From: Octopus sinensis
Taxonomy: Eukaryota
DNA: 64,000 bases
Direction of reading: 5' to 3'
Assembly: GCF_006345805.1 (NCBI RefSeq)
Contig: NC_042999.1
Span: 106,888,001 to 106,952,000, forward strand
The translations under genes were made by a program, and so were the position numbers. A model generated the notes under the pieces. That model was not told the DNA's origin. It made no database searches and saw only the letters and a list, made by a program, of their open reading frames with translations. Positions 6,490 through 63,650 of this stretch are shown in pieces. Numbering within the stretch: position 1 is the stretch's first letter; each line of letters begins with the position of its first letter.

Positions 6490-6719
6490 TTTGCAAAACC
6501 ACTATTTTGCAAAACAAACAAGGAAAGACTTAATCAATACATAAAATTTTAATAAAAAGTCAAAAAAACCGCCACTACAATTGTTTCTTGTCCTGATCGA
6601 CAATCTTCAGGTGGACTTCCAATTTTCAAGTCAGTTTCCATTAAGCTTTATGTGTCTTCTCAAACACAGTAAACTGGCAACAGTCTTAGTCTCTTGTCCT
6701 CTCATGGAGGTGATGACAA

Positions 6720-6722
<3 letters not shown>
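6490..6722 (-). mobile_element. Penelope-like pseudo-LTR fragment carrying a hammerhead ribozyme
   Basis: Non-coding unit between (TACA)n and (TA)n tracts containing a complete minimal HHR. Its motif AAAACCACTATT..GCAAA.CAA recurs at ~6795. Confidence 0.55.
6572..6614 (-). ncRNA. Minimal type I hammerhead ribozyme, complete core
   Basis: Minus strand: CCAC-CUGAAGA-UUGUC-GAUCAG-GACAA-GAAAC-AAUU-GUA^GUGG. Stem I CCAC/GUGG, stem II UUGUC/GACAA, palindromic stem III ACAAUUGU, cleavage triplet GUA. Confidence 0.85.
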
Positions 6723-6767
<45 letters not shown>

Positions 6768-6901
6768 ATAATATATATAAATTATATTAGAGATAAAACC
6801 ACTATTAGGCAAATCAATTTATATTTATACTGTGAAATTTGATTTAATCCTAAATCTAATTTTTCCCTGTAAGTTTGGATTTACTCCCTAATATTATATA
6901 T

Positions 6902-6963
<62 letters not shown>

Positions 6964-7047
6964 TTGTCATCACCTCCATGAGAGGACAAGAGACTAAGAC
7001 TGTTGCCAGTTTACTGTGTTTGAGAAGACACATAAAGCTTAATGGAA
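6636..7047. repeat. Perfect 87-bp inverted repeat (6636-6722 / 6961-7047) enclosing two (TA)n tracts
   Basis: TTCCATTAAGC...GATGACAAGTG is the exact reverse complement of CACTTGTCATC...GCTTAATGGAA. Confidence 0.95.
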
Positions 7048-7059
7048 TCTTAGTTGTGA

Positions 7060-10886: not shown

Positions 10887-11990
10887 ATATAATAATGAAA
10901 TTATTGTATACAGTGCTCAGGTGCACCACAACTTGTCAGAGTATATGCAGTAATGTACAAATGTCTGGAAAGCAAACAATGCATGAGTCAGATACATGCT
11001 TGTGTGCGTATGGAGGGGAGAAAATCAGGTGTAGTGTTGGCGAATCTCAGAAAGCATGGAAGTTTTGAAGGATGCAGTGCTCCGACAACTAACAACTGAT
11101 GCCGGCAGTTTGTTCCATGCTTCAACAACTCTCAGCATGAAAAAATGTTTCCTGAAGTCATGGGAGCTGTGCTGTTTTCTGACTTTGTAAATATGTCCAC
11201 GGGTGTTAGATGGGTGGAGTTTGAAAAGGTGCTCAGAGTTATTGTTTGTACGATGGTTGATAATTTTATGGGTGTCTGCCAAGTCAGCTGCCAGACGTCG
11301 GAGTTTCAATGTGTCCATGCCCAGGGAAGTAAAGCGTTCAGGATATGGCAAATGCCTGGTGGAGGGTATTCTTTTGATTGCACGTCGCTGAACGGCTTCC
11401 AGACGATTGATATCCTGGGCAAGATAGGGGTTCCAGACCGGTGATGCAAATTCCAGGTGAGGTCTTACCAAAGCTATATAAAGCCGCAGATAGATAGTCG
11501 GAGAGCGACTCACAAAGGATTTGGTGAGTGATGCCAAGACACCCTCAGCCTTCTTGACAATTTTAGCAATGTGCTTTGTCCAACGCAAATCACTGTCGAC
11601 AATAACACCCAGGTCACATTCACATGAAGACTTTTTGAGACTAGTGTTGTGGAGGGAGTAGGTGGACGCTGGGTTTCTCCTCCCAAAATGCATGGTGGTA
11701 CATTTGTCCACAGCCAGCTTGAGTTGCCAGTCCATGATCCACTGCTGCATTGTGTCCAGGTCTGCTTGCAATAGAGATATATAGTGTACAGGATCTGACC
11801 TCTTTATTTCGAGGTACAGCTTGATGTCATCTGCATATTTCAGCACTGTGGCATTCTTTAAGTTGGCATCTATGTCGTAAACATATGCAACAAATAAAAA
11901 GAGGCCAAGAACAGAACCCTGTGGTACACCAGATGCCATCTCATAGGGCAAAGAGTACTGTCTTAGAACTGTGACAACCTCTTTTCGGAC
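10887..11990 (-). mobile_element. 5'-truncated CR1/L2-group LINE
   Basis: Contains the RT ORF below, a short 3' UTR and an ATT-type terminus near 10887. Confidence 0.9.
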
Positions 11991-11996
11991 GATCAC
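11025..11996 (-). CDS. Reverse transcriptase C-terminal half (LINE ORF2 fragment, no true start)
   Basis: 323-aa uninterrupted ORF with SGVPQGSVLG, YADD, DLGVIVD, RPHLEFASPVWNP, TRGH and RVVEAWNKLP, the typical CR1-clade ORF2 motifs. Confidence 0.9.
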   Translation of the reverse strand: MIVRKEVVTVLRQYSLPYEMASGVPQGSVLGLFLFVAYVYDIDANLKNATVLKYADDIKLYLEIKRSDPVHYISLLQADLDTMQQWIMDWQLKLAVDKCTTMHFGRRNPASTYSLHNTSLKKSSCECDLGVIVDSDLRWTKHIAKIVKKAEGVLASLTKSFVSRSPTIYLRLYIALVRPHLEFASPVWNPYLAQDINRLEAVQRRAIKRIPSTRHLPYPERFTSLGMDTLKLRRLAADLADTHKIINHRTNNNSEHLFKLHPSNTRGHIYKVRKQHSSHDFRKHFFMLRVVEAWNKLPASVVSCRSTASFKTSMLSEIRQHYT

Positions 11997-12589
11997 ACTC
12001 GAATGGTGCTTTTACCATGCCACTGGCACGGGTGCTAATCAAGCAGTCATGTAATATATATATTTCACTTCTTCTGTTCCTACAAGATCATATAATATTT
12101 CTGTATAATACTGTGGTACAATGTCTCGAAGCTGAGGAGAAAGGGATGGTATAGTTGATTATATTAGTCCCAGGACTTAACAGTACTCTATTTTACTGGT
12201 CTTAGAAAGATAAAACATAAACCTGACCTTCCAAAATGTAATCCTTTTGCTACCAATCCACCTCAGATATTAAATGGCTATGAATAAATTTTACATCCCA
12301 TTGCAATTTCTTCTTTGCTGTTTAGTCAGGGAGGAAAGGCCAGTAAGTTGTGTTCCCTTAATTTTTAGAATCCTCAAAACCAGTCAGAGGAAGAGAGAAA
12401 GACCAGTAGCCAAGTCTAAATCTTTTAACAGGATAAAGTCTGCTAAGTGGCCCAAGGACCAGGTGATGGTGCGAAAAACCAAACAGCAAATTAAGACTAC
12501 AACCCAAGAATTCAAAACACAAATATTAAAATGAATGCAAGTCATTTCATCTGATACTATGGCAACTCCACTACAAGGACAGGTTATTT

Positions 12590-20789: not shown

Positions 20790-22670
20790 CTCAGCAAAGA
20801 TCTATCAAAACAATGAACACAGCACATGAACATCTCTGGACCCCTATAACAACTGAAGAGGTCACACAGGCACTGCAAAAACTAAGCAACTGGAAGGCAC
20901 CTGGACATAACAAGATCCCCACCTTCTGGTTAAAATACTTAACAGGAATACATAAAAAGCTGGCTGAGAAATTTAATGACATACTAGCAGAGCCAGAGAC
21001 AATGCCTGAATGGCTCATGGAATGGAAAAACTATCCTAATTCCCAAATCCACTGAAACAGTAAACCCACAAAATAACAGACCTATAACTTGTCTCCCTGG
21101 AATTTACAAAGACCCTTTACTGCAATAATATTGTAGAGAATGAGCAAGCATCTGAAAGAAAACAACCTGTTTCCAGAAGAGCAGAAGGGATGCTGCAAGG
21201 GCTCACACAGCTTTAAAGATCAGCTACTGATCAATAAAGACTTAACTGAAGACAGTCACAGAAAGAAGAAGGGTCTAGATATGGCCTGGATCGATTATCA
21301 AAAGGCTTTTGATAGCATTCCCCAAATATGGAACACTAGCCATGAAAAAGGTAGTATCAATAATCATAAAATATATAAAATAATCCATGAATAAATGGCA
21401 GACATTGCTACAACTCCAAACAAAAGAGAGACTCATAAAAACTAAAGTCATCCTCATTAGAAGAGAAATATTCCAGGGAGACATACTCTCTCTCCACTCC
21501 TTTTCTGCTTGGCACTGACACCTTTATCTGACATGCTAAACAGAACTAGATGTGGATACAACTGTTATGGCCAAATAAACAGCCACCTCTTATATATGGA
21601 TGATCTAAAACTGTAAGCTACAAATGATAAGCAATTGGAAACATTACTACAAACAGTACATGGATTTACCAAAGAAATAAACAACGAAATTTGGCTTAGA
21701 AAAATGTGCCAAAGCAACCTTGTAAAGAGGAAATCTGGTTAAGAGTAGCAACATCACTCTAGATAAAGCAAATGAAATAAGATATTAGACCAAAGCCAGA
21801 CATACAAACTTAGGAATCAATGAACTAGATACATTGCAACACACATAAAGGAAAGAGAAGATAAAAAAAGAATATTATAGACAAGTCAGATTAATACTGA
21901 AAACAGAGCTCAACGTGAAAAACAAGATAATATGTATCAACACACAAGCTGTCCCAGTTATAAATTACAGCTACAATGTTCTTAACTGGACATTTAAATG
22001 AACTAATCAAAATAGACAGGAAAACAAAAAAAATAATGACAGAATTTAGGATGTACCACCCACAATCAGACATAGAAAGCTTATATATCCAATATATGGA
22101 AGGTGGTAGAGGCCATATAACAGCTAGAAAACTATTACTAAATAACTACCATAAGACTACAGAAATGGTTGCTTTCTCTAATAGTGCTGATGTTGACAAA
22201 GCCTTTACTCATCAATGGTTAGTGTCTTCTGGCTTAAAATCAGAAACAGAAGGGCTTATCATAGCAGTCCAAGATCAATGCCTACCTACAGGGAATTACC
22301 AGGCCAGCATATTACAGAATGTCAGTAGCCCAATATGTCATGTATGTCAACAGCAAAATGAAACTATTGATCATGTCTCCATGTGCAGTCTTCTTGTACC
22401 TACAGAATATCTCAACGGGCATGATAGAGCAGTAACATATATTCAAGGGTAATTGGAGAAAAATCTGGATCTACCCCATGATAAAAACTGGTGGGAACAC
22501 AAACCGCCTCCAGTGCTTGAAAATGATCACATCTCACTCCTCTGGAACTTCACCATTCAAACTAACAGAAAGATAGATGCGAATAGGCCAGATATTATAT
22601 TGAAAGACTTCAGACAAAAATCATGCCTCCTCATTGATATGACTGTACCAATCAACAGTTATATTTAAAG
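20790..22670 (+). mobile_element. Decayed R4/Dong-clade (RLE-type) non-LTR retrotransposon
   Basis: WKAPGHNKIPTFWLKYL, EEQKG, WIDYQKAFDS, HLLYMDDLKL (~21583-21613), CCHC finger CHVC...ETIDHVSMC, and RLE motifs LWNFTIQT...RPDII...LIDMTVP. Multiple frameshifts. Confidence 0.9.
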
Positions 22671-25998: not shown

Positions 25999-26050
<52 letters not shown>

Positions 26051-26052
<2 letters not shown>

Positions 26053-26767
26053 GCTGTTTTTACTGAGATCTCCCTTTTTAGTAGAAGAAATAGCTATAAC
26101 CCTTTGACTGCTATTTCTAAATTCGGTATGTGGTAAGGCAACTCGTTGCTAAACCCTTATTGCTTAGTATTACTTAAATTTTCCTCGAATGAGGCTTTTA
26201 CATGCCGAAGACTACTTGGTGTAATTGATAATTTTTCCAAATTAATTAATTTCACCCTTCATTATTACGGATAACCATATTTTATCTCAGTAGATGACCA
26301 CAGCATCTTGTTTTGGCTACACGCGGGTGGGAAGGGGCTGTTGACACAATCGTTTCATTCACAAATTGAATTCGGTGATACCAGTTGCGGATTCTAGCTC
26401 GCTCTGATACTGAGTTGAGTTGGTGCCTTCTGGTATCTCAAAATTCAATATATAATCATTTATGATTATAGTATTCTACGCTGAAGAGAAAAGAAGTTTC
26501 GGTAAGATAGAATTATTTAATATTTAATATTTAATTCTTATGCTTTCCTAAAAACTTGATTTCGAAACGTACGTCCGTGGATAACTAAAAAAATGTATGA
26601 TAGATTGCAGTCAATTCATTCTCTCTTACCTGTTTGTGTCTGCCTTCCAAATGCTGTTTTTACTGAGATCTCCCTTTTTAGTAGAAGAAATAGCTATAAC
26701 CCTTTGACTGCTATTTCTAAATTCGGTATGTGGTAAGGCAACTCGTTGCTAAACCCTTATTGCTTAG

Positions 26768-26770
<3 letters not shown>
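26051..26770 (+). mobile_element. Non-coding HHR-bearing element: 600-bp unit plus exact 120-bp terminal direct repeat (retrozyme/PLE pseudo-LTR-like)
   Basis: 26051-26170 is identical to 26651-26770 (period 600). Flanked on both sides by (TA)n. Internal HHR and several hairpins; no ORF of 60 aa or more. Confidence 0.8.
26475..26581 (+). ncRNA. Type I hammerhead ribozyme with extended stem II, complete core
   Basis: UCUACG-CUGAAGA(26481-26487)-GAAA...76-nt stem II...UUUC-GAAAC(26564-26568)-GUAC-GUC^CGUGGA. Six-bp stem I, G10.1-C11.1 pair, palindromic stem III ACGUACGU, canonical GUC site at 26573-26575. Confidence 0.85.
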
Positions 26771-26809
<39 letters not shown>

Positions 26810-27074
26810 CACACACACACATATATATATATATATAGCTCTTATTTCTAGCATTGTAGGTGTTCTCACACCCTAGTTATATTTAGTGACAATTATAGTT
26901 TTCTTTTTTGGTAGCACATTGCACATGGCTGTCTATATTAATTTATTTATATATATATATATATACACAGTAAAGCTCCTCCTCTATACACAGTTATGCA
27001 CACGCACATATATAACATATAATATATGTATATACACATATGTACATATACATGTATACATACCTTCTTCCATC

Positions 27075-29330: not shown

Positions 29331-30944
29331 AAATATACATACACATGTCTGCAGAAGACCCACCCATTTACACTATGATACAAGATACACTGTACACATA
29401 ACTCAAAGAGCTACCTCTGCTACACACACACAATCACACTGAGTTTGTTTGAGAATTATCATATTAAAAAAATGACATTGAATGAATTCTCTTTTTGAGG
29501 ATTTTGTATCACAGTATAAGTGCCTCAGTATTCCCCAGATATGTAGAATACTCTTCCACTCACACAACGAACTGGCATTAATTCAATGTCATTTTCTCCA
29601 AATCTATGAATGCCAAAATTAATCTGTTTGATTGTGATAGATGTCACATTGTTAGTTTAGTTTTGCCAATGTTAAGAATTATCTTCTGCAACAGAACTTC
29701 TTACATTCACAACTGATTAGATTCACACCACAGGGAATGAGAACTTATATTAGAAGTTGATATTAGAATTTCTGAAAGTAATAAAAATTGTTTTAAATTT
29801 TAGTTTTATTTTCTATGAATCTTAGATAACATATAACCTATACCAGTGATGCACTTCTAAACAACTCTTTATGTGGTATGATTTTAATGGTAAAGTCAAG
29901 GAAGAAAACAGTGCCATGTGCTACTTTCCTTCCTGACTTGACTTTTCAGGTTCTTCTTGAGACTGATATGTGGTACATTTAATTTGAGTATTCATAAATC
30001 AAAAGATAGGTGAAGGTGGAAGCTGATTTTAGTGGGTTACATTTTAGGAAGAAATGACTGGATAATTATTATAGTGGAGTTTCAGAAGTGAAGTACAGTA
30101 AAAGTGATGAGAAAAAGAGTAGATATTGTGTTGGGTAGGCTTGAATGGTAGTGATGCTTAAAAGGATGCTTCGGATACTGACTGAGGTACACCGTGCCAT
30201 GAAATGTATAAAAAAGTGGGTGTGGGGGTCGGGATTGTCTGACTGGACTACTTTATGTCATAGACTATATCTGTTATGATCTTGCTCAGTCTGCTGAAAA
30301 TGGCAAGAAATTTTCTTTTATAATAGCTACCAACTTTAGAATAAATTAGCATGGTCATAGCTGAAACATTCTTGATCATGGGCCTGATCTGTGGCTAAAC
30401 AACAGCAACAACATTCAGTTGATTATTCTTAGGCATTCAGTGTTAAACAACAGTGACAGAATACAAAGCACTGTCCTTGCAGTCAGTTGTATGATACTCC
30501 ACAAACTCCACAATCCATATACCTTTCCATTATTACAAATACTTTCATCACCAAATGCTCTTTCAATAGCCATCAACATGAGTACAACCATGGTTGTGTG
30601 ATTAAGGAATTTGTTTTACAACCATGTAATTCTATCGACATTCTCACTACATAGATGATGCCTTAGATCATATGCCTTATTAGTTTAAAATTTTTTTAAA
30701 ATTTTAATAAGGTATCAGGGAATTTATTTGAAATATAAAATAGATGAGATATCTGAATACTTATTCATGCTTCTAAATTCAAAACCTGTTGAGGTTGAAT
30801 TAGTTTTACATTGAAAGGTTTGGGTATTTTACCTGACAATCTAGGGATTATGTGAATGAATATTGTTAAATATAGATTATGTATGTTTGTATGCATAAAT
30901 ATATGAATCTAAGCATATCACTGCTGTTATATATATATATATAT

Positions 30945-31534
30945 AAAGAGTGAGAGAGAGAGAGAGAGAGTGAGTATATATGCTTGGGTGCGTAAATGTA
31001 TGCATGAATCTGAGCAGAGCAATGCAGTTATGTTGGTGTAGTTGTATATTTACATATGAATATTAAAGTATATGTATTTCTATACTAACACTTCCATGAA
31101 GTGCCTTGTGGTGTAACCCATTCTTTTGTACAAATACTTTGTGTTTCTATCAAGTACTTCTTTTTTATAAATGATACATGAATCACAAATATCTATTTTC
31201 ATACATATGTGTGTATATATACCTACATATATATATATATATTATATATATATATAAAGAGTGAGAGAGAGAGAGAGAGAGTGAGTATATATGCTTGGGT
31301 GCGTAAATGTATGCATGAATCTGAGCAGAGCAATGCAGTTATGTTGGTGTAGTTGTATATTTACATATGAATATTAAAGTATATGTATTTCTATACTAAC
31401 ACTTCCATGAAGTGCCTTGTGGTGTAACCCATTCTTTTGTACAAATACTTTGTGTTTCTATCAAGTACTTCTTTTTTATAAATGATACATGAATCACAAA
31501 TATCTATTTTCATACATATGTGTGTATATATACC

Positions 31535-31538
<4 letters not shown>
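30945..31538. repeat. Exact 283-bp direct duplication (30945-31227 / 31256-31538), bounded by (TA)n
   Basis: Both copies read identically, period 311. Confidence 0.9.
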
Positions 31539-31590
<52 letters not shown>

Positions 31591-38262: not shown

Positions 38263-39738
38263 AGACCTTTCTTCTTTCTGTGGCAGTCTTCAGTTAAGTC
38301 TTTATTGATCATTAGTTGATCTTTACAGCTGTATTAGCCCTTGCAGCAACCCTTCTGGAAACAGGTTGTTTTCTTCCAGATGATTGCTCATTTTCTGCTA
38401 TATTATTGCAGTAATGACTTTGTAAATTGTAGGAAGACTAGTAATTGGTCTGTAATTTTGTGGGTTCACCATTTCAGTGGATTTGGGAATTAGGATGGTT
38501 TTTCCTTTCATGAGCCATTCTAGTATGTCATTAAATTTCTCATCCAGCTTTTTGTGTGTTTCTGTCAGATATGTTAACCAGAAGTTGGGGATCGTATCAT
38601 GCCCGGGTACCTTTCAGTTGCTTAGTTTTTGCAGTGCCTAGGTGACTTCTTCAGTTGTTATAGGAGTCCAGAGTTGTTCAGGTGCTGAGTTTGTTGTTTT
38701 AATAGACCTTTTCTGAGGTTGTTCCTTCGCCGACCATATTTCTTCCCAAAATTCTTCCACTTCTGCTGCAGGTGCTGCATTGATGTCTATTTTATTTTTG
38801 CCAAGTTCTTGGTAGATTCTTTTGGGGTTGGAGTTGAACTGTTTGTTAAAGAAACATTGGCATTTCTCATACCAGCAGATCCATTGTGCTTTGGTAAGGA
38901 TATCTTGCTTTAGCTGTTCTTCTACCTCAGGTAAACCCTTTTCTGTAATGTATTTGCAGAGTATTTTTGCTCTCTTCTTGTTGCTTAGTAGTGCTGATTG
39001 TTTACTAGTTTCGTTAAGGATTCATAGATCTTTTCTCTTGTTTTCTATTTTTTCTGGATATTATTTATCCACAGGGTTTATTTGGGTGGTGGTGCTCCTG
39101 TTTGGATGGGTTTGAGGGAGTATCCAGCTTCTTTTGTGGCCACAGTGGCTGCTGTATATATTATGTTGTTTAGCTCAGTGATATTGACATTTGTTTCTGT
39201 GGCTATTAGTTCTGTAACGTCCAGGTTCATGCTATTTATTATTGATGTTGTTTTATTATCTATTTTAATTTTTGGGAGGTACAATCGGTGGTCCATACTG
39301 AGATCTGGGGCTTTCAGTTCTTTGATTATGCCCATTTTCAGAGTATCATAATCATTAGGTTCATCTTCATTGTTTCCCAGTTTTAGATTTGTTTTGCCTT
39401 CCTTTTCATTCATATGTTTGTCTGTAGTATTCTGGTTTGATGCTTTTTGCACATCATTATACATTCCTGCGTTCAGTGTTTGTTGTCTTTCATTATTTAC
39501 TTTGCTTTTGTTGGAAATGCTACGTCTGTCTTCTTGCTTTACAGTTCCAACACTTATGGTATTATTTGGCATTGCTGTGTGGATTTACTATCAACATTTT
39601 CCTGATGCATTTTTCATTTTAAGTGTTCTATTTCTAGATATCATTTTTGTTTTGAGAATATATCTTCGTATGTTAGCTGGTTTATTAGGATTCATTGCTG
39701 TATCCAAGTCTTTATTTAGGTTACTTTTCTTATTCGGA
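38263..39738 (-). mobile_element. R4/Dong-clade 5' half (N-terminal domain to start of RT)
   Basis: ORF 39078-39572 with ITELNNIIYTAATV. 38263-38720 is the reverse-complement homologue of ~20800-21275. 5' end abuts (TTA)n at 39739-39805. Confidence 0.85.
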
Positions 39739-39741
39739 TTA

Positions 39742-39797
<56 letters not shown>

Positions 39798-39805
39798 GTT
39801 ATTAT

Positions 39806-40635
39806 CATTTATGATTTCCTTTCATTATAACTTCATTTCAGCTGCCTTATTACTGGGCATCCTCCAGAGGCCAAGAGTAGCAAGGACAATTTTGTTTTAC
39901 TATTCATGCTAAAATTATCACCACATTTATTCCATTTTAGATGGAGATTGCTTTCCGTAGTATACAGGCTGTACCCATCAAGGTTATCCTTTGTAGTTAA
40001 CAGAGATTGGAGTTAAGGAGTTGCTTAATATATTTCTTAGCTCCCTTCTTTATCATTCCCAATGCACCAATCACTGCTGGTATTATCGTAGTACTAATCT
40101 TCCACATTTTTGCGATTTCAGTTTGCATATCTTTAGAGTGAGAAAGCTTTTTGTATTCTTTTTTTGAGACATTTGGATCTTGTGAGACAGAAATATCTTT
40201 TAACAGACAAGTTCCTCTGTTGTAGTCCTCAATCACAATGTCTGGTCGATTGCAGTCATTTTTTCTTTCTGTATAGGGAAGTTCCAAAGGAAGGTGACAC
40301 CCTCACCATTTACTACATCCTCTGGATGGTACCTGTACCACTTATTATGGGATTTAATTTTGTAGTATTTACAAGCATTCCTGTGGATGTACTGCCTTAT
40401 TCTCTCATGTCTTATGAGGTACTCCTTTTCAGCGTGAACTGGGCAGCCAGAAACAACATGATCAATTGTCTCTGAGAATTTTCTGCAAATTCTGCATGAG
40501 TTGTCAGATCCATCTTTAAGGATGTTTGCATGGTAGTTTCTGGTAGGTAAGGTAAGCTCTGATCTTGCACTGCAATAACAAGACCTTCAGTTTCCCCTTT
40601 CAGACCTGTCCCTTGTAGCCATTGGTGTGTTAAAT
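39806..40635 (-). mobile_element. R4/Dong-clade 3' fragment (RLE domain)
   Basis: HQWLQGTGLKGETEGLVIAVQDQSL, RPDIV, KEYKKL, IIPAVIGALG. 3' UTR ends at the (TTA)n tract. Confidence 0.85.
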
Positions 40636-40716
40636 TTTCATCATCATCATCATCATCATCATCACCACCACCACCACCACCGCCGCCGCCACCACCACCA
40701 CCACCACCATCACCAC

Positions 40717-40748
<32 letters not shown>

Positions 40749-40979
40749 AGGTGGCAAGCTAGCAGAATCATTAGCACCCCCAGTGAAATGCTTTGTGATA
40801 TTTCATCTACTGCCACGTTCTGAGTTCAAATTCCACCGATGTTGATTTTGCCTTTCATCCTTACAGAGCTGGTAAATTAAGTATCAGTTGCATACTGGGG
40901 TAAATGTAATCAACTAGTCCCCTCCTCCAAATTTTGGGGCCTTTTGCCTTTAGTAGAAAGGATTATTATTATTATTATT

Positions 40980-42196: not shown

Positions 42197-42951
42197 GATT
42201 TATTTGCAAGGGAGATATAACAAGATTTATTAGATTTCTGCTTTTTTGAAAGGTATAGCCAAGAAAGTAAAGTTGATTAGTTTTTGCTGAGAATTGAAAT
42301 GAATTTGTAAAATTATATTCCTGCACAGCTGCTTCCCTGCTGCAATACTCACTCCTCATAAATCATTTTATAATGATTTTTGCTATATTTTTTTGTGTTT
42401 TCCATCATAATTGGAATGAATTATGATCCCAAACATAGGCAGAAAAAGCAAACATTTCTGGAGTTGTGTGCAGTTATAACCAGTACTTTACTGGTACTTC
42501 TTTTACCAAATTTGGATGAAAGACAAATCTGAGACCATAAAGAGACATTCTGCAAAGCATTCAATTCAGTGTTGTACCAGATAAGCCAATCATCATTTTT
42601 ATATTGGAGAAAGAGTGATAACAATTTTGCAAAGATATACAAATGAGAATAATGATTTAATAATTTAACATTAAAGGGAAGTGTATGGAATAGTCATAGT
42701 ATTTGTGTCTTTCTGATATAGATTAGTGAAGTGATTAATGTTCTGCTTGATAGAATTCTTAGAGACATTAAACTGAAGTAATGCTTCATCTTGCAGACAA
42801 GTAAACTACAGCAAATTAACCACAACTGGTCACATTTTAGGAGTCAGACTGCCAAATCGAGCTGCTACTTTGAATTCTAACAGCACAGACATTTCACTCT
42901 GCCTGGGTAATATTTATCCCCACTTAAATGTGGATGTTCTGTGAGAACAAA

Positions 42952-43105
42952 CTATACTGCCATAGATACCATGAGAGAACCTCTCTTTGGCTTTTGGTGC
43001 AAAATGCACTTTTGTTCACCTCCCCTGCTAGTGATATGAACAAGAGTACATTTTGCACCAAAAGCAGAAATAAGAGTTTCTCTCATGGTATCTATCACAG
43101 TATAG
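42952..43105. repeat. Palindromic hairpin (MITE-like)
   Basis: ATAGATACCATGAGAGAA / TTCTCTCATGGTATCTAT and GCTTTTGGTGCAAAATG / CATTTTGCACCAAAAGC arms with a short loop. Confidence 0.85.
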
Positions 43106-45489
43106 GTTGCCTAAAAGAACATCCACATTTAATTGGGCATAAATATTACCTCTTAGCATTAATACTGTCTCTGTTGCTAATATATATTTTTACTCTGTCT
43201 ATCTACTGTACAAGTCTTGCATTTTAGGTGATTTGAACCTGGAAATGAAATTTATCATGCATCTATGTTGTTGTGTTTGTCGAATATTATAATGCATTTG
43301 TCTGAATCAAATAAAAGAATTGGTAAACTTAGAATGCTTCTATGATAGTTAGCACTGCTTTCACATGTCAGTAATGCTTCTATTTGTGTATATGTAATTG
43401 CAGATTCTGTATTGGTTATGACATTTATTGGCCATGAATTATGCCAAATTATTTCTATATTAAAATGTGTTAAAACGAACATTGATTAAGCTATATATTA
43501 TCAACATTGGTCAATTTAAACACATGAATTCTCAAAATACTTATACCAGGCTTTCCATCTAAATTATATATGAAATATGCTAAATATCAATAAATAGTAA
43601 TTAAATATGAGAAATATGAGATGTGGTAGGTTTACGAAATTAATAAAAGCAGTGTAAGAAATCAAAATATAACATCAATTAAAGCAACATCAATTCAGAC
43701 AGGATTAATGTTTGTAAAGATCCGTAAAGATCCTTCCTTTACAGGAAAATATTGTCTTCTTTCTTTCATAAACACTGAAGCCAATAACTGTCAATATGTG
43801 AACAGCTACTGCAAGCCTCTGCCAACAATTTAGCATTGCTCAAATTAAATGAAACATTTTCCTGACAAAGAGCAACTGCAAGCATTGAAAAATGTTGTAA
43901 GAATTTATAAGATTAATCTTGAAGCAGATTAATTGCTGGAAGCCTCATATAATATGCAAGCTTTTGAAAGAGAACAAATTATTCTCTATTGATTTCCCCT
44001 TCATTTTGCCAAAACTGTGAAACAGGTAACTCAACAAACAATCTTAAGTTCTATTGAATAAAGTGCTAACACTGAAAAGAAAAAATATTTTCTATTCTAT
44101 GAATATAAGTGTTTAATTAGTAATATAAAGCAAGCAACAGAAAATACTAAAATGTTTAGTTCTATTGTTGGTCTCATGAGAAAGCAGAACTACATTTACT
44201 ACAACAATATGAGACAATAGTGGAAATTCTGATGTTATTAGCTTTTATTGCTTATTGTACAAAATATCTCTATTGAAATTGTTATTATTCGGATCACAAT
44301 CCTTATCAATCATATTATCATTACCATCATTATATTATTATTTCATTATCATCATTGTTGCTATTAACATATACAGTTTTTCACTGAAATTTAAAGTTTG
44401 ATTTCCTAAGCCCTGTTGATTGAGATATGTGATACTCAAAATATCCTATTCCTATTCTGTTTTATGTTTTCATTTTTTTCAGAAAGGCCTAACAACATTT
44501 AATAGAAAGCCCAAAGAGGCTTAGGAAATGTTATTAACCAGCATGTCATTAAAGAAAAGAAAGATTAATATCCCATAACAGAAATATATGAATATCAATA
44601 ACTTTATTAATAATATTGTTGTTGCCATTATTACTATTATTATTGTTATTGTTGTTGTTGTTATAAATAACAATATTAATAGTTATCATTGCTTTTATTA
44701 CCACTAGAACCCATTCATGTGTACTAAAAGCATATTACAAAATTATTACAAACCCATGTGAAGATGTACAAAGTTTTCTAAAAATTGGCTGTAAAGAACT
44801 AAAATGTTTTTATTTATGAATTTATTGAAAAATGATTAATAAAAATATATAAACACTTAATATAATTGATAGAGGGTAATTCACCAAAATGCAAGTGAGA
44901 AACCACAACATGAGTTAGAGCACACTGGTAGTCAGCATTTATATGCATGGCAATACTAAGAGCTGATTTTAGTCTGTGTTGTGTATGTGTGCATGTATGT
45001 ATCTGTGTATATATTTATATATGTATGTGTGTGTATGTATGTAAATATATATATATATGTGCTAGTATATATGTGCTTGTATATATGTATATGTGTGTAT
45101 GTATGTGTGTGTGTTTTTCTGTATGTGTGTATGTGAATATGTAAATATGTGTGCATGTGTTTGTGTTTGTGTGTGTCTGTGTGCATGCATGTGTATATCT
45201 TTTATCTTTTACTTGTTTCAGTCAGACTGTGGCCATACTGGAGCACTGCTTTGAAGAATTTTAGTCAAATAAATCAACCCCAGTAGTTATTTTATTTTTT
45301 TAAGCCTGGTACTTATTCTATTGGTCTCTTTTGCTCAACTGCTGTATATATATATATATATAAAGCCTGTATATATATAAACTCAACCGACCATAGCACC
45401 ATTCCTTTGGGGGTAATTTTTCAATATTTTCAGTAAAATAAGCATTAATTTTTACATTCTAATGCTTTGTTTTCCTTTCTTTGCAGATT

Positions 45490-54522: not shown

Positions 54523-55215
54523 GTATATACATATGTATATGTGGGTGTGCATGTGTGTGTGCATGCATGTATGTGTAATTCTTTTCGCATTTTACTGAAA
54601 TGCATGTTTGTCCTACAACAGTATTATTTTCTGCTTATTATTGTTAATATATTGGTTTGGTGATTGAACGTGCATCTCTATATTAAAATGAATTTCAGAT
54701 ATTAATTTTGTTTAGAATTTATTAACATACCATAGTACTTTCAACAATTGTCTTTATTTTTAATGGTAAATTTAAAAAGTTAGATGAAAATTTAAAAGAA
54801 AGAGAAAGATGAAATAAAAATCAAAAGCTGAAGTAATGGGGCTTCTTCCAGGATACAAAGCTAACTTCAAACCATTGAGTAATTACATTTTCTTGACACT
54901 ATTTGCTGATGTTACAATTAATCAGCCAGACTGCTTTTGATTAAAACTGGACATTGAGTAGTAAAAAAACACAACTTATGCTTTTAAGCATTCAACCAAT
55001 CAGGACATCAGAAAAACAGCTGACATCTTAAGTGAGTCTGACAAATAGAGTGTTAGACTACTGTCAGACAAAGACAAGTAACCAGAACATTTGATAAACA
55101 AATAATGTCCACAGTCAGGGAAATAAACCAAAACAATGGACCAGGTAGACAAGAATAACTGATGTTATTGAATAAATAACCAATCAGGACTTGAATCTGT
55201 CTTAAAACCTACATA

Positions 55216-55744
55216 TACAGGGTGTCCCAAAAGTCATTGATGGGTTTCGGTTTTTAATAACTTCTTTAACTTTACAAATAAATGCATGAGATTTTGATAC
55301 AACATAAAGTACATAATAGAAAGTAATATGCACAAGTCAAATTTTGCAACACTACTACACCACGTATACAAAAATGACATTGCATAAAACCATTTTCGGC
55401 TTTGCACACCCATATTCTTTCCAAAACTTGCACCATAACACCCCCAAGAATTTCAGACTCCACTTCTCTGATTTCTCTATTAATGTTCTCCTTCAGTTGC
55501 ACCAGGGTATCCCTACAGGAAAAAATCTGGGCAAGTCAAGTCTGGGAGTATGGGTGTGCGAAGCCAAAAATGGCTGCCATATAAGGGATGTCATTTTTCA
55601 TGTAGTGATGTTTCAAAATTCGACTTATGCACATTAATTTTCAATATGTTCTCTATATTGTATCAAAATTTCATGCATTTATTTGTAATGTTAAGGAGAT
55701 TATTAAAAATTGAAACCCATCTGTGACTTTTGAGACACCCAGTT
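55216..55744. mobile_element. Tc1/mariner-type MITE with ~210-bp terminal inverted repeats
   Basis: TA-CAGGGTGTCCCAAAAGTCATTGATGGGTTTC pairs with GAAACCCATCTGTGACTTTTGAGACACCC. Complementarity continues inward to GGCTTTGCACACCCATA / TATGGGTGTGCGAAGCC. Confidence 0.85.
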
Positions 55745-56000
55745 ATAAAGCAATACTCCAGTTCCACCTTTGAACAAATAAAACAAGTGACAAACAATTC
55801 TGCCTGATTTTTAAATTGATGTAATGTTTGCATTGTTCAATTAAATGGAGTCGCATGAAACGATTGTACTGCATTACCTCTGGATATCCTTGTTGCTTAT
55901 TTTGATTATAATCACCCCATTTTGAATTATATGGATAATACCATACTAAATTCTGGTGCCTTTAACTTAAGTACCATATTCATCTGAATCTAAATTTTAC

Positions 56001-56447: not shown

Positions 56448-56810
56448 AAGAGTTAAGGAATGGAGTAGATAAAACTGGGCTGCATGCTTCAAAGCAAGTA
56501 GAACCTCAGAAGTGATAATCCAAGTGAGATGTATACAACAGGCTACTCTTCAGGCCAAGGGTGTCTTGATTAAATGAAGCTTACTTTGTTGTTAAGAGAC
56601 CCCTGTTAACACACAGAGGAGTTTTTTTAGAATCCTCCATGTGTTGACATGGGTTCCAAATGATAAAGTAAACTTCATTTAATCAAGATACCCTTTGCCT
56701 CAAGAGTAGCCTATAGTATACACCTCATTCGAATATTTACTACTTCCAAGGTTCTGCTCACTTTGAAATGTATATAGGCTGGATTTCATCTATTCAATTC
56801 CTTAACTCTT
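56448..56810. mobile_element. Foldback palindromic MITE-like element
   Basis: AAGAGTTAAGGAAT / ATTCCTTAACTCTT, AGGCTACTCTT / AAGAGTAGCCT and TCTTGATTAAATGAAG / CTTCATTTAATCAAGA pair symmetrically around ~56627. Confidence 0.8.
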
Positions 56811-61345: not shown

Positions 61346-62053
61346 GCAATGCCAAATATACAGCTCATTAAAGTCCATGTTATCAGTTGAAGCATATATA
61401 CTAACACAACACATGTCCACATTAACTTTTGGTCATTGACTGTGATGATTGGTTGAGTGCAAGGATACCGTTTATTAGCTTGTAAACTCATTGTATTATG
61501 ATATCAGACTATTTGCTTGAAAATACGTTACTTTCCAGTACTTCTAATAAGTGTGTATGTAATGACATTAAACTGACAGTAACCTTAATATGTGGGTATG
61601 TATGTAATGACATCTGGTGGTGAGGCTCCAGTTCTGATGTTGTGCAGAGTATAGAGTCACAGACCCATTCTAACCAGAAACAGTAGTACTTATAAGGGTT
61701 AAATAGATTTCCCAGGGGTAAAAAAGGGTACCATTATTTTTGGCCAAGTCTTAGGACAGGCAACTCCTCTAGAAGAAAGATCCTCGGACATAAAACTTGC
61801 AGTCAAAACAGTACCAGACCTATTAAGACAACTGAGAATGTAACAAAAGTGTTGTACAAGGTTTTGTCATTTGAATCCAGTAAAATACAGATATCTCACT
61901 ATCATTTCATTTCTTGATTTGCTTTGTATTTTATGAAGTCTTATTGTGATGGATGCATAGCATGAAAAGTTATATTTGTGCACATGCAAAGATGAAAGTA
62001 AATCAGAGCTATTAGGTTGAATGTGAGATAGCTATCATCTGACTAAATGAGGC

Positions 62054-62136
62054 AAAAGGGTAAAATTAATTAATCAATAAATAATTAATAATTTTACCAA
62101 GTAGTTCGGTATGTTAAAAGAACCATTATCAGTAAA
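62054..62136 (-). repeat. Fragment homologous to part of the 600-bp HHR element (26183-26260)
   Basis: Minus CTTTTAACATACCGAACTACTTGGT...ATTAATTAATTTTACCCTT vs plus CTTTTACATGCCGAAGACTACTTGGT...ATTAATTAATTTCACCCTT. Confidence 0.55.
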
Positions 62137-63650
62137 CTTATACAAAAATTCTATAATTATGAGTAACCCATGCTAGCATGGAAAACGGACGCTAAACGAC
62201 GATGATGATATTTATAATTAGGATTCAGCAAAATTTGCTTCACCACATACTGAAATTTAGAAATAGCAGCTAAAACTACTATTTCACTACCATAAGAAAA
62301 TCTCCCAGACAGCAATACTCATACTTATAGAATTTATATATATACATATATATATGCCAAGTAAAATCACTGTCTCCCACACATACAAGATTGTCCTTTC
62401 AGGTGCTGGTTCCACTCAAAAAGCACCCATGCCAGAGCTGCGTTATCACACCCAGCACATTCTATTAAGCAGATGGCATCAGGAAGGGCATCCAGCCAGA
62501 CAGCTAGAATTTGGACAGCTCTCTGCTAGCCACCTCCATGCCAAACCATCCAACCCATGCCACCATGGAAAGCATACATTAAAAAATGATGATGATGATG
62601 ATGGTGTGTGTGTGTGTGTACACACACTAAGAGTAAATTATCTCTTATCACTCATGTGCTCGGTACCATGACATAGCAACAAAGTTATTTGAGAAGAAAC
62701 ATTTCCATTCTACATTATATAAACTAAACTATAACTTTTCAAACTGTATTTTAATTTCACCATTACAGTCAAGCTAATCACTTTGTGCTTGTTTTGGGTA
62801 AAGCTATTACTCTCTGGACACTGTCATAAAGATCATATTATGTTTTAATATACTGTCACTTAAGATGATTTCACAGCACATTTTCCAGAGAGAAAAATAA
62901 AGGCAAATAGAATGTTATTTAGAAGAACAAACCTATTGTATTTTTACAGAAAGTGTATGAAAACATCATCATTATTATCATCATCATCATTATCATTAAT
63001 ATCATCATCCTCATAATCATCACTATTATCATAACTGTTGCTGCTGCTGTAGTTGTTATCACTTTTACATCTACTTTTTCCATGTTGGCATGGGTTAGAC
63101 CAGAATTCTAAGGCAGTACAGTTAGGATTTACAGATGGATTTCTTAGGTTATACTGAAGTAGGTGAGGTGTATGAGAAATTGAGAGAGTGACAGACAATT
63201 CCTAATGCCAGACATTTACTTGTTTTCAAATAAGACACTTTATTCCATTGGGATAAACAAATGTCACTGCTACACATGTGATGTCAGTCTGAAGACTTGC
63301 AAAAATAAACATTCATATGTATATGTGTGTGTGTGTGTGTCTGCATGTGTGTGTGTATATGTGTCTGTGAGTGTGTGTGTATACACACATGCATGTGCAT
63401 GTGTGTGTGCTTGTCTTGAGAGAAGTGTATAGGTTTCCAAACAGCACTTGTCATCTTAATTGCACACACATGGTATTGATCCAGCTGAGACTGTAGTAAA
63501 AGATGTTTGTGTTGGGAAGAAGAATTGTAAGAGTGGCTTGACAGGAATGTATTGCATGCAGGACATAAATAAAACAATATGCTTTTGGGACCTCAGTTTT
63601 GCACATTGTGTCTATATATGCATATATATATATGTATGTATATATGTATG

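Follow-up and report, generated by a model that had tools for sequence, protein, structure and literature searches.

We have analyzed a stretch of 64 kb of the Octopus sinensis genome (the window, 64,000 nucleotides in all) that contains, inserted in a TA-rich microsatellite, a short repeat arranged as a partial tandem. The unit of 600 nt occupies positions 26051–26650 of the + strand and is followed by a second copy of its own beginning, 26051–26170 and 26651–26770 being identical over 120 bp at a spacing of 600, with 0 bases of extension at either side in the self-comparison. The first two nucleotides (AT) and the last three (TAT) of the repeat match also the flanking tracts, so that the unambiguous duplication is of about 115 bp. 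The left flank (26001–26052), presumably a part of the target, is formed by (AC)n from 26001 to 26033 and then by (AT)n up to ~26052, and the right flank is a (TA)n microsatellite at 26768–26837. The insertion has its 5' end at 26051, where the first copy of the redundancy starts. The second copy, similar to a pseudo-LTR, provides the 3' end, with a 3-nt TAT microhomology to the tract. The whole locus amounts to 1.2 units with a single ribozyme, located outside the repeat.

The unit appears to be non-coding. The longest stop-free stretch in the six frames was of 58 codons, reading the doubled unit round its junction, and there were no Pfam matches in the 600 nt. A frame of 47 codons with an ATG, located 3' of the ribozyme, was also without Pfam match and was treated as a chance occurrence. 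Nothing of the RT/GIY-YIG kind was found in the unit or in 29 scanned ORFs, most of which (21) lie no more than ~5 kb away. The GC content is 35% and the CpG dinucleotides have been retained (17, with an observed/expected ratio of 0.93 vs. 0.22 for the window, a level that ~1% of the 600-nt windows get to). An earlier note on this DNA had already claimed the exact 120-bp redundancy at period 600, the TA tracts on both sides, the absence of ORFs and the retained CpGs, and all four are borne out by these data. A reading as a tRNA-derived SINE or other pol III transcript was dropped, given that there is no tRNA gene in the 64-kb window, no B box in the unit and one loose A-box-like match only. 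The unit has neither a poly(A) signal nor a poly(A) tail.

A type I hammerhead ribozyme is predicted at 26475–26581 of the + strand, with all the core positions present. Helix I pairs 26475–26480 with 26576–26581 (6 bp), CUGAAGA is found at 26481–26487 and GAAA at 26564–26567, and the base of helix II pairs 26488–26491 with 26560–26563 (4 bp) and carries an arm that encloses 76 nt in all. Helix III has 2 bp and a palindromic GUAC loop, the triplet is GUC, and the predicted cut falls after C26575. Apart from the long arm, these helix sizes (6/4/2 bp) are the ones given for canonical metazoan hammerheads in PMC4209133. The note had placed one complete hammerhead in the unique middle rather than in the repeat and had read the monomer as 26576–26650 followed by 26051–26575, and both the location and the cut site that this reading implies were correct. 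The hammerhead descriptor gave two hits in the real window vs. none in 150 block-shuffled windows of 64 kb. Rfam at the gathering score found no match in the whole window, and at E values up to 10 the region 26000–26800 gave 16 chance-type matches, none of them to a hammerhead family, likely because of the long helix II; the passages considered in PMC3088659 do not describe a long helix II of this kind. Taken in isolation, the ribozyme region folds no better than shuffled versions of it (z −1.07), so that its support comes from the motif and from the variants described below. The catalytic fold is predicted to cost 1.1 kcal/mol over the local minimum. The pair probability of helix III in the monomer is 0.03–0.04, and its palindrome self-pairs between two copies at −9.8 kcal/mol. 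With a helix III of only 2 bp closed by a palindromic loop, the ribozyme would be expected to cut mostly in dimeric form. If cutting does depend on dimers, transcripts with a single ribozyme would stay whole and multimer transcripts could release monomers and circles.

The unit folds strongly on the + strand. The linear fold had a z of −5.7, with 0 of 100 shuffles as good. The circular monomer, whose folding the earlier note had suggested, gave a closed and nested structure with a z of −6.2 (40 shuffles), 64% of the positions paired and a minimum free energy of −157.9 kcal/mol vs. −127.8 kcal/mol for the antisense. As a background, a rough z of about −5 or less was also reached by two of 26 non-overlapping control stretches of 600 nt, which belong to other repeats. 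The prediction has two parts, a branched domain A (26051–26306) closed by 26051–26057 with 26300–26306 (mean pair probability 0.97), and a long rod B (26308–26650) that bears the ribozyme at its tip and includes the hairpin 26365–26384/26430–26449. Both hairpins named when extensive hairpins were first claimed for this element are found in the predicted fold. We had considered 26051 as a sharp boundary between the domains, a view that had to be softened, as the circular fold puts this position inside a predicted helix spanning 26648–26657 that links the two. In the cut monomer, helix I is predicted to keep both ends together, with pair probabilities of 0.83–0.97.

Several other repeats were detected in the window. 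A second, compact type I hammerhead is located at 6495–6722 (− strand; core 6610–6604), with helix II of 5 bp, helix I of 4 bp, a palindromic ACAAUUGU and a GUA triplet, within an element of ~230 bp placed between (TA)n and (TATG)n. An inverted copy of this element (6963–7056, 94 bp, 97% identical) lies across the TA tract. The element has no similarity to the 600-nt unit and no Rfam match, its isolated fold does not form the ribozyme, and it looks like another PLE-type family. At 30928–31568 there is a tandem duplication of 311 bp, 99.4% identical, between (TA)n tracts and without hammerhead, which could be either TA-mediated or an assembly artefact. A LINE remnant at 11025–12011 (−) retains a 328-codon C-terminal fragment of the RT, with O. 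sinensis (70%) and, over half of the query, O. vulgaris (88%) as the closest named hits, so that the host is Octopus-like, and broken remnants with weak zf-RVT matches at 21964–22668 (+) and 38638–40825 (−) are R4/Dong-like. Inverted repeats or palindromes of 75–84% identity were found by self-comparison at 42906–43150, 55217–55743, 56448–56810 and 6627–7056, and the stretch 55201–55800 folds at a rough z of −17.7. These long inverted repeats are possibly MITEs or inverted PLE ends.

The 600-nt family is young and abundant in octopus. Among 24 public sequencing runs listed, the stretch is present in 20, and 19 have at least half of the 64 words sampled from it. These 19 runs span 11 studies and nine coded organism labels (which may be sister species or synonyms), each label has a run with a share of at least 0.86, and some of the word-rich contig sets have only 5–6 million letters. 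The contigs of four runs (X1, X3 and X7, all DNA-like, and X17, RNA-like) were aligned to the monomer written as 26111–26710, a cut point chosen so that both insertion ends were internal. Aligned contigs numbered 6078, 2190 and 1268 in the three DNA-like runs (listed by size) and 72 in the RNA-like one; all 30 bins were covered, leaving no gap round the circle, and no contig listed spans a whole unit. Most contigs of the DNA-like runs were 95% alike or more to the monomer. The summed depth in these runs was of 30,000 to 1,350,000 per bin, vs. ~7–650 for the single contigs listed, from which we infer, a summed contig depth being no copy number, that the copies are roughly in the thousands. A young, non-coding, structured retroelement with a hammerhead, as was inferred from this one locus, is thus what the family data support (19 of the 24 listed runs, no ORF, z about −6). 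Exact-motif scans of metagenome contigs, viral contigs and prokaryote genomes gave 0 matches, as expected for an animal repeat.

The depth was continuous across 26650/26651 in X1 and X3, and in the three DNA-like runs the fraction of contigs that continue into unlike sequence is 0 after rounding. A joint that goes back 600 positions was seen in all four runs. We rejected it as evidence of tandems or circles, because the cut point of the monomer lay inside the 120-bp repeat. One contig of X1 (depth 50.7, n = 1) joins 26484 to 26576, that is, the interior of the ribozyme is missing and the sequence resumes exactly at the predicted cut; the polymerase may have jumped across a cut ribozyme or skipped at the base of helix I. 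A diverged relative in X7, with a loose end at 26528, seems to have the core in its U7 form. In two contigs each of X3 and X7, which have two different organism labels, the same ~50 nt of foreign sequence precede 26512, which may be a truncated insertion common to both, mark a subfamily or point to a partner element. Within the window itself there is a decayed relative at 62046–62316 (−) that corresponds to domain A only (unit ~26051–26263; E 1.4e-7 for each of two pieces; alignment score of 178 vs. a maximum of 143.5 in 30 shuffles). It begins beside a degenerate TA tract and is interrupted by another repeat.

The variants found in the contigs mostly keep the predicted pairs. We considered 30 DNA-supported variants among those listed (40 of 56 rows), leaving out the 10 of the 40 that are essentially confined to X17. 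Placed on the circular fold, 14 fell in unpaired positions, nine keep the pair, three are paired only with a partner variant and four break it. The pair-breaking variants are at most seven, counting the three partner-dependent ones as breaks, vs. 12.8 expected (P = 0.009). All three variants in helix I (26477 T>C, 26579 G>A and 26581 A>G) keep the pairing, and none of the 13 core positions varied among the variants listed. The pair C26382-G26432 has matching T and A variants that would give a U-A pair, although unphased, and the loop-3 variant 26571 A>G would leave the self-pairing in place by wobble. An apparent compensation between 26341 and 26614 was dismissed, as the shares of the two variants are far apart (e.g., 75% vs. 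2% in X1), and both were counted as breaks. The pattern is what selection on the RNA, favouring the pairing of the modelled fold, would produce.

A different pattern was found in X17, whose RNA status is a guess and whose organism label is the same as that of X3. None of the runs listed is recorded as RNA, which has no bearing on the expression of the family. Here, 31 of 43 changed places were A>G (19) or T>C (12), vs. 8 of 30 in X3 (Fisher P = 1.5e-4), although the comparison is with DNA from other animals and the contigs give no strand, level or circularity. The excess is clustered at 26581–26602, and A>G at 26590, 26591, 26592 and 26602 had zero depth in the three DNA-like runs. This is likely A-to-I (hyper-)editing of transcripts of the family, from both strands. 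Several of the changed sites are unpaired in the unit's own predicted fold, which suggests duplexes between inverted copies.

The ends of the insertions are clustered on one side. We examined the best 24 of 257 loose-end rows, chosen for support, which favours hotspots. Seven of them are junctions into (TA)n, involving 39 contigs of X1, X7 and X17, all at the 3' side, and X3 has no TA junction among these rows. One cluster at ~26170 has nine contigs (one of X7, one of X17 and seven of X1, the latter of a diverged variant listed at 26159). The other and best supported one, at 26266–26280 (sites 26266, 26273 and 26280), has 30 (23 of X1, five of X7 and two of X17). All the 3'-end sites in these 24 rows are contained in domain A, and the clusters sit 195 and ~290–305 nt downstream of the predicted cut. 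UAU at 26168–26170 is in a predicted loop (unpaired probability 0.70) and is the end type used by the copy described here (26768–26770), so that the right end of this copy is a recurring end of the family. The same three positions would be the place where reverse transcription started. In the second cluster, AUAU at 26277–26280 is in a predicted hairpin loop (0.96) and 26271–26273 in a predicted stem. Other unpaired AUA/UAU sites (26095, 26407 and 26520) had no junction among the best 24 of 257 rows. The earlier note had expected circularly permuted starting points, an expectation that the data do not support for the 3' ends, since the seven TA junctions are without exception 3' ends at ~26170 or 26266–26280. 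It had also named fixed ends or an attachment to PLE ORFs as the marks of an ordinary pseudo-LTR; the 3' ends do cluster, and no ORF-like tail was present among the best 24 of 257 rows.

At the 5' side the picture is more diffuse. No 5' TA junction, for instance at 26651, was present among the best 24 of 257 rows, and the 5' ends of the family may well be scattered. A preferred 5' end at 26051 is weakly suggested by three observations. The decayed relative at 62 kb starts at about this unit position. The summed depth of X7 is 2.65-fold higher over 26651–26690 plus 26131–26270 than elsewhere, with no overlap between the two sets of bins (the same step was 1.3-fold in X3 and 1.8-fold in X1, in the latter not significant, P = 0.14). 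Finally, 26051 lies within the predicted helix that links the domains.

Taken as a family, the 600-nt repeat is very probably a non-autonomous element of the PLE/retrozyme type. Starting from the observed anatomy, ribozyme motif, abundance and clustered 3' ends, we have reconstructed a way of mobilization in which the partner enzyme, the form of the template, the 5' preference and any cleavage are our proposals, and which we consider, taken as a whole and with an uncleaved linear RNA longer than one unit as the template, to have an even chance of being right. Transcription of a head-to-tail source locus would yield RNAs whose 5' end lies preferentially near 26051. A (TA)n tract would be nicked by a PLE protein supplied in trans, our guess being one of the Neptune type, and the nicked end would pair by 3–4 nt with UAU or AUAU inside domain A. 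Reverse transcription would begin there, in the interior of the RNA, at 26170 or 26266–26280, and copying through the uncut ribozyme as far as the 5' end would leave a partial tandem with an overlap of 120 bp, as here, or of ~225 bp when the downstream site is used. If reverse transcription began already in the first domain A, the product would be limited to this domain, as is the relative at 62 kb. With one ribozyme there is no release of unit-length monomers from this copy, which is probably a dead end.

The Poseidon PLE of the anole initiates internally, from two sites of a stem-loop placed 3' of its hammerhead, on AT-rich nicks, and in this one PLE tested in vitro the unprocessed (uncleaved) RNA was the dominant template (PMC11167929). 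A bias towards microsatellites has been reported for Neptune and Naiad; Naiads prefer (TA)n, have no hammerheads and are found as dead remnants in cephalopods (PMC8557442). PLEs make up 6.83% of the O. vulgaris genome, with 190 families of which 31 were recently active, and the rows consulted of the supplement to that work never mention a ribozyme, a retrozyme or a hammerhead (PMC13282606). Some points stand against the proposal. No autonomous partner came to light in the 29 ORFs, the 26273 end is in a predicted stem, the spacing of the two 3' clusters and the apparent microhomology differ from those of PLEs, as detailed below, a linear uncleaved template does not account by itself for the conservation of the catalytic core, and the ribozyme has the canonical helix sizes of retrozymes and not the minimal PLE form (PMC4209133).

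As the insertion crosses the predicted cut site, the template must have been either an uncleaved transcript of more than one unit or a circle. It is possible, with rather less confidence than we have in the linear template, that the Penelope-type enzyme has a 600-nt RNA circle as its template, on which it would start at fixed internal loops, and that the copies go into TA microsatellites. Multimer loci would provide monomers cut by the ribozyme (26576–26650 plus 26051–26575), a host ligase would close them, and the enzyme would start at the loops of domain A and run more than once round the circle. This idea explains directly why the cut site is crossed, something that a cut linear monomer cannot template, and fits well with the closed and nested fold predicted for the whole unit and with the modelled helix I that would hold both ends of the cut monomer together. 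The conserved core, with even the diverged relative of X7 apparently in the U7 form, the uninterrupted coverage of the 30 bins and the single contig that rejoins at the predicted cut go in the same direction, and fixed 3' starts are compatible with it. Retrozymes of mussel, coral and axolotl do produce circles (PMC7229834), and rolling-circle retrotransposition, including a circle as the origin of copies longer than one unit, has already been published as a hypothesis for animal retrozymes and PLEs, without being demonstrated there (PMC4209133, PMC7229834). Against the circle, this copy has only one ribozyme, a circle should give scattered 5' ends and yet the three hints mentioned above indicate 26051, and an anole PLE RNA with a dead ribozyme was inserted as usual in vitro (PMC11167929). 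We favour the linear template because of the 5' hints, of the predicted dimer dependence and of the in vitro precedent of Poseidon.

It is unlikely that there is no free-standing family at all and that these are ordinary pseudo-LTR remnants, i.e., truncated partial-tandem end copies of an autonomous PLE with its ORF. PLE pseudo-LTRs do carry hammerheads, form partial tandems and are mostly found in truncated copies (PMC4209133, PMC8557442), and the 3' ends cluster here as they do in PLEs. In such remnants, however, the end of rod B should not run straight into domain A with no ORF between them, as it does here with continuous depth at 26650/26651 (X1 and X3). Besides, hardly any contig of the DNA-like runs continues into unlike sequence, no ORF-like loose end was present among the best 24 of 257 rows, and the 29 ORFs scanned had no PLE domain. 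Still less probable is the mobilization by a LINE that targets microsatellites (Dong/R4 or RTE) in place of a PLE. The window has R4/Dong-like fragments at ~21.9–22.7 kb and 38.6–40.8 kb (zf-RVT matches below the curated cutoff), with which the unit has no blastn similarity. Families of Dong-R4 and RTE have been recently active in O. vulgaris (PMC13282606). The type I hammerhead, the partial tandems and the internal starts are traits of PLEs, and the lack of a poly(A) signal or tail also goes against a LINE. Finally, a misassembly in which a high-copy repeat was collapsed is a very improbable origin of the 120-bp redundancy. In its favour are the 100% identity, the second near-exact duplication bounded by TA at 30928–31568 and the fact that, of the 32 pieces listed out of 9691, none bridges 26650/26651 with 31 letters at both sides (record 24 crosses it by 7 letters and record 32 by 5). 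Against it, the 26170 junction recurs at the 3' side in X7, in X17 and, as a variant, in X1, two records (18 and 25) span 26170/26171 with at least 31 letters at both sides, diverged relatives also pass from B-like sequence into ATGCTG, and an artefact would even so leave the family standing.

The non-autonomous PLE-type reading, with retrozyme-like features, agrees also with the comparison with known systems. The element shares with the animal non-LTR retrozymes a non-coding unit with less than 50% GC in head-to-tail arrangement and a canonical type I hammerhead (PMC7229834; 10.64898/2026.07.22.740005), as well as a stable self-paired fold that leaves the ribozyme free to fold and a high copy number (PMC7229834); a retrozyme of this kind is known in a mollusc, the mussel, with 350–390 bp (PMC7229834), and the class is further described in PMC7761336. 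The octopus unit is larger, 600 nt vs. the typical 170–400, although within the range of 51–972 of Li et al. (10.64898/2026.07.22.740005), its helix II encloses 76 nt vs. 4 bp and a small loop in the animal non-LTR retrozymes, and the locus, dispersed and 1.2 units long, has a single ribozyme and is inserted in (TA)n, unlike the head-to-tail arrays of retrozymes. Li et al. call active a retrozyme with two or more consecutive ribozyme-bearing units. With 1.2 units and one ribozyme, the octopus locus can only be a derivative of the monomer class. What it has of a retrozyme is the intact type I core and a highly self-paired, non-coding unit with 35% GC. What it has of a non-autonomous PLE is the ORF-less partial tandem, more than one clustered internal 3'-end site and the (TA)n target, which is found on both sides of this copy and in the 39 contig junctions.

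Canonical PLEs and their pseudo-LTRs are similar in the partial tandem, in the hammerhead located upstream of more than one internal 3'-end site (PMC11167929, PMC8557442, PMC4209133) and in the AT-rich or microsatellite target (PMC11167929, PMC8557442). The octopus unit differs from them in the absence of ORF and in having a canonical and not a minimal ribozyme (PMC4209133). Its end clusters are ~105 nt apart vs. 30–40 nt for the PLE tail, and priming involves an apparent microhomology of 3–4 nt vs. a non-homologous start site in the anole PLE (PMC11167929). MRC1, a non-autonomous Chlamys PLE of Chlamydomonas, is also ORF-less, with pseudo-LTRs and head-to-tail insertions, and belongs to a microsatellite-biased clade, although green-algal, biased to (CA)n and mostly without hammerheads (10.1101/2021.04.23.441226). 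The LTR retrozymes of plants are similar in unit size (circles of 600–1000 nt), hammerhead and terminal repeats and differ in the type III ribozyme inside both LTRs, the PBS/PPT and the target duplications of 4 bp (PMC4918200); here the ribozyme is of type I, single and outside the repeat. The choice between a retrozyme and a PLE pseudo-LTR, as put in the earlier note, was right in pointing to this kind of element, but the opposition is largely false, since animal retrozymes (51–972 bp) have been argued to be themselves non-autonomous derivatives of PLEs (10.64898/2026.07.22.740005). We file the family as non-autonomous PLE-type and retrozyme-like, because the locus does not have two ribozymes in tandem.

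The class was known, and the locus alone would be no surprise. We found no cephalopod hammerhead retrozyme in the open literature searched, in which this appears to be the first element of the retrozyme type noted for a cephalopod, although it may already be an unnamed entry of Repbase, Dfam or the O. vulgaris library. A long helix II that escapes Rfam indicates that surveys of ribozymes may undercount such families. The RNA of the family looks like an ADAR substrate, in a group of animals known for heavy editing. With its 3' ends at discrete internal loops, the family connects the retrozymes with the chemistry of internal initiation demonstrated in a PLE, and given so many young copies a tally of ends and unit numbers can decide between a circular and a linear template. 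If the circle were the true template, the thousands of near-identical insertions, including the join of 26484 to 26576, would be a genomic record of rolling-circle retrotransposition.
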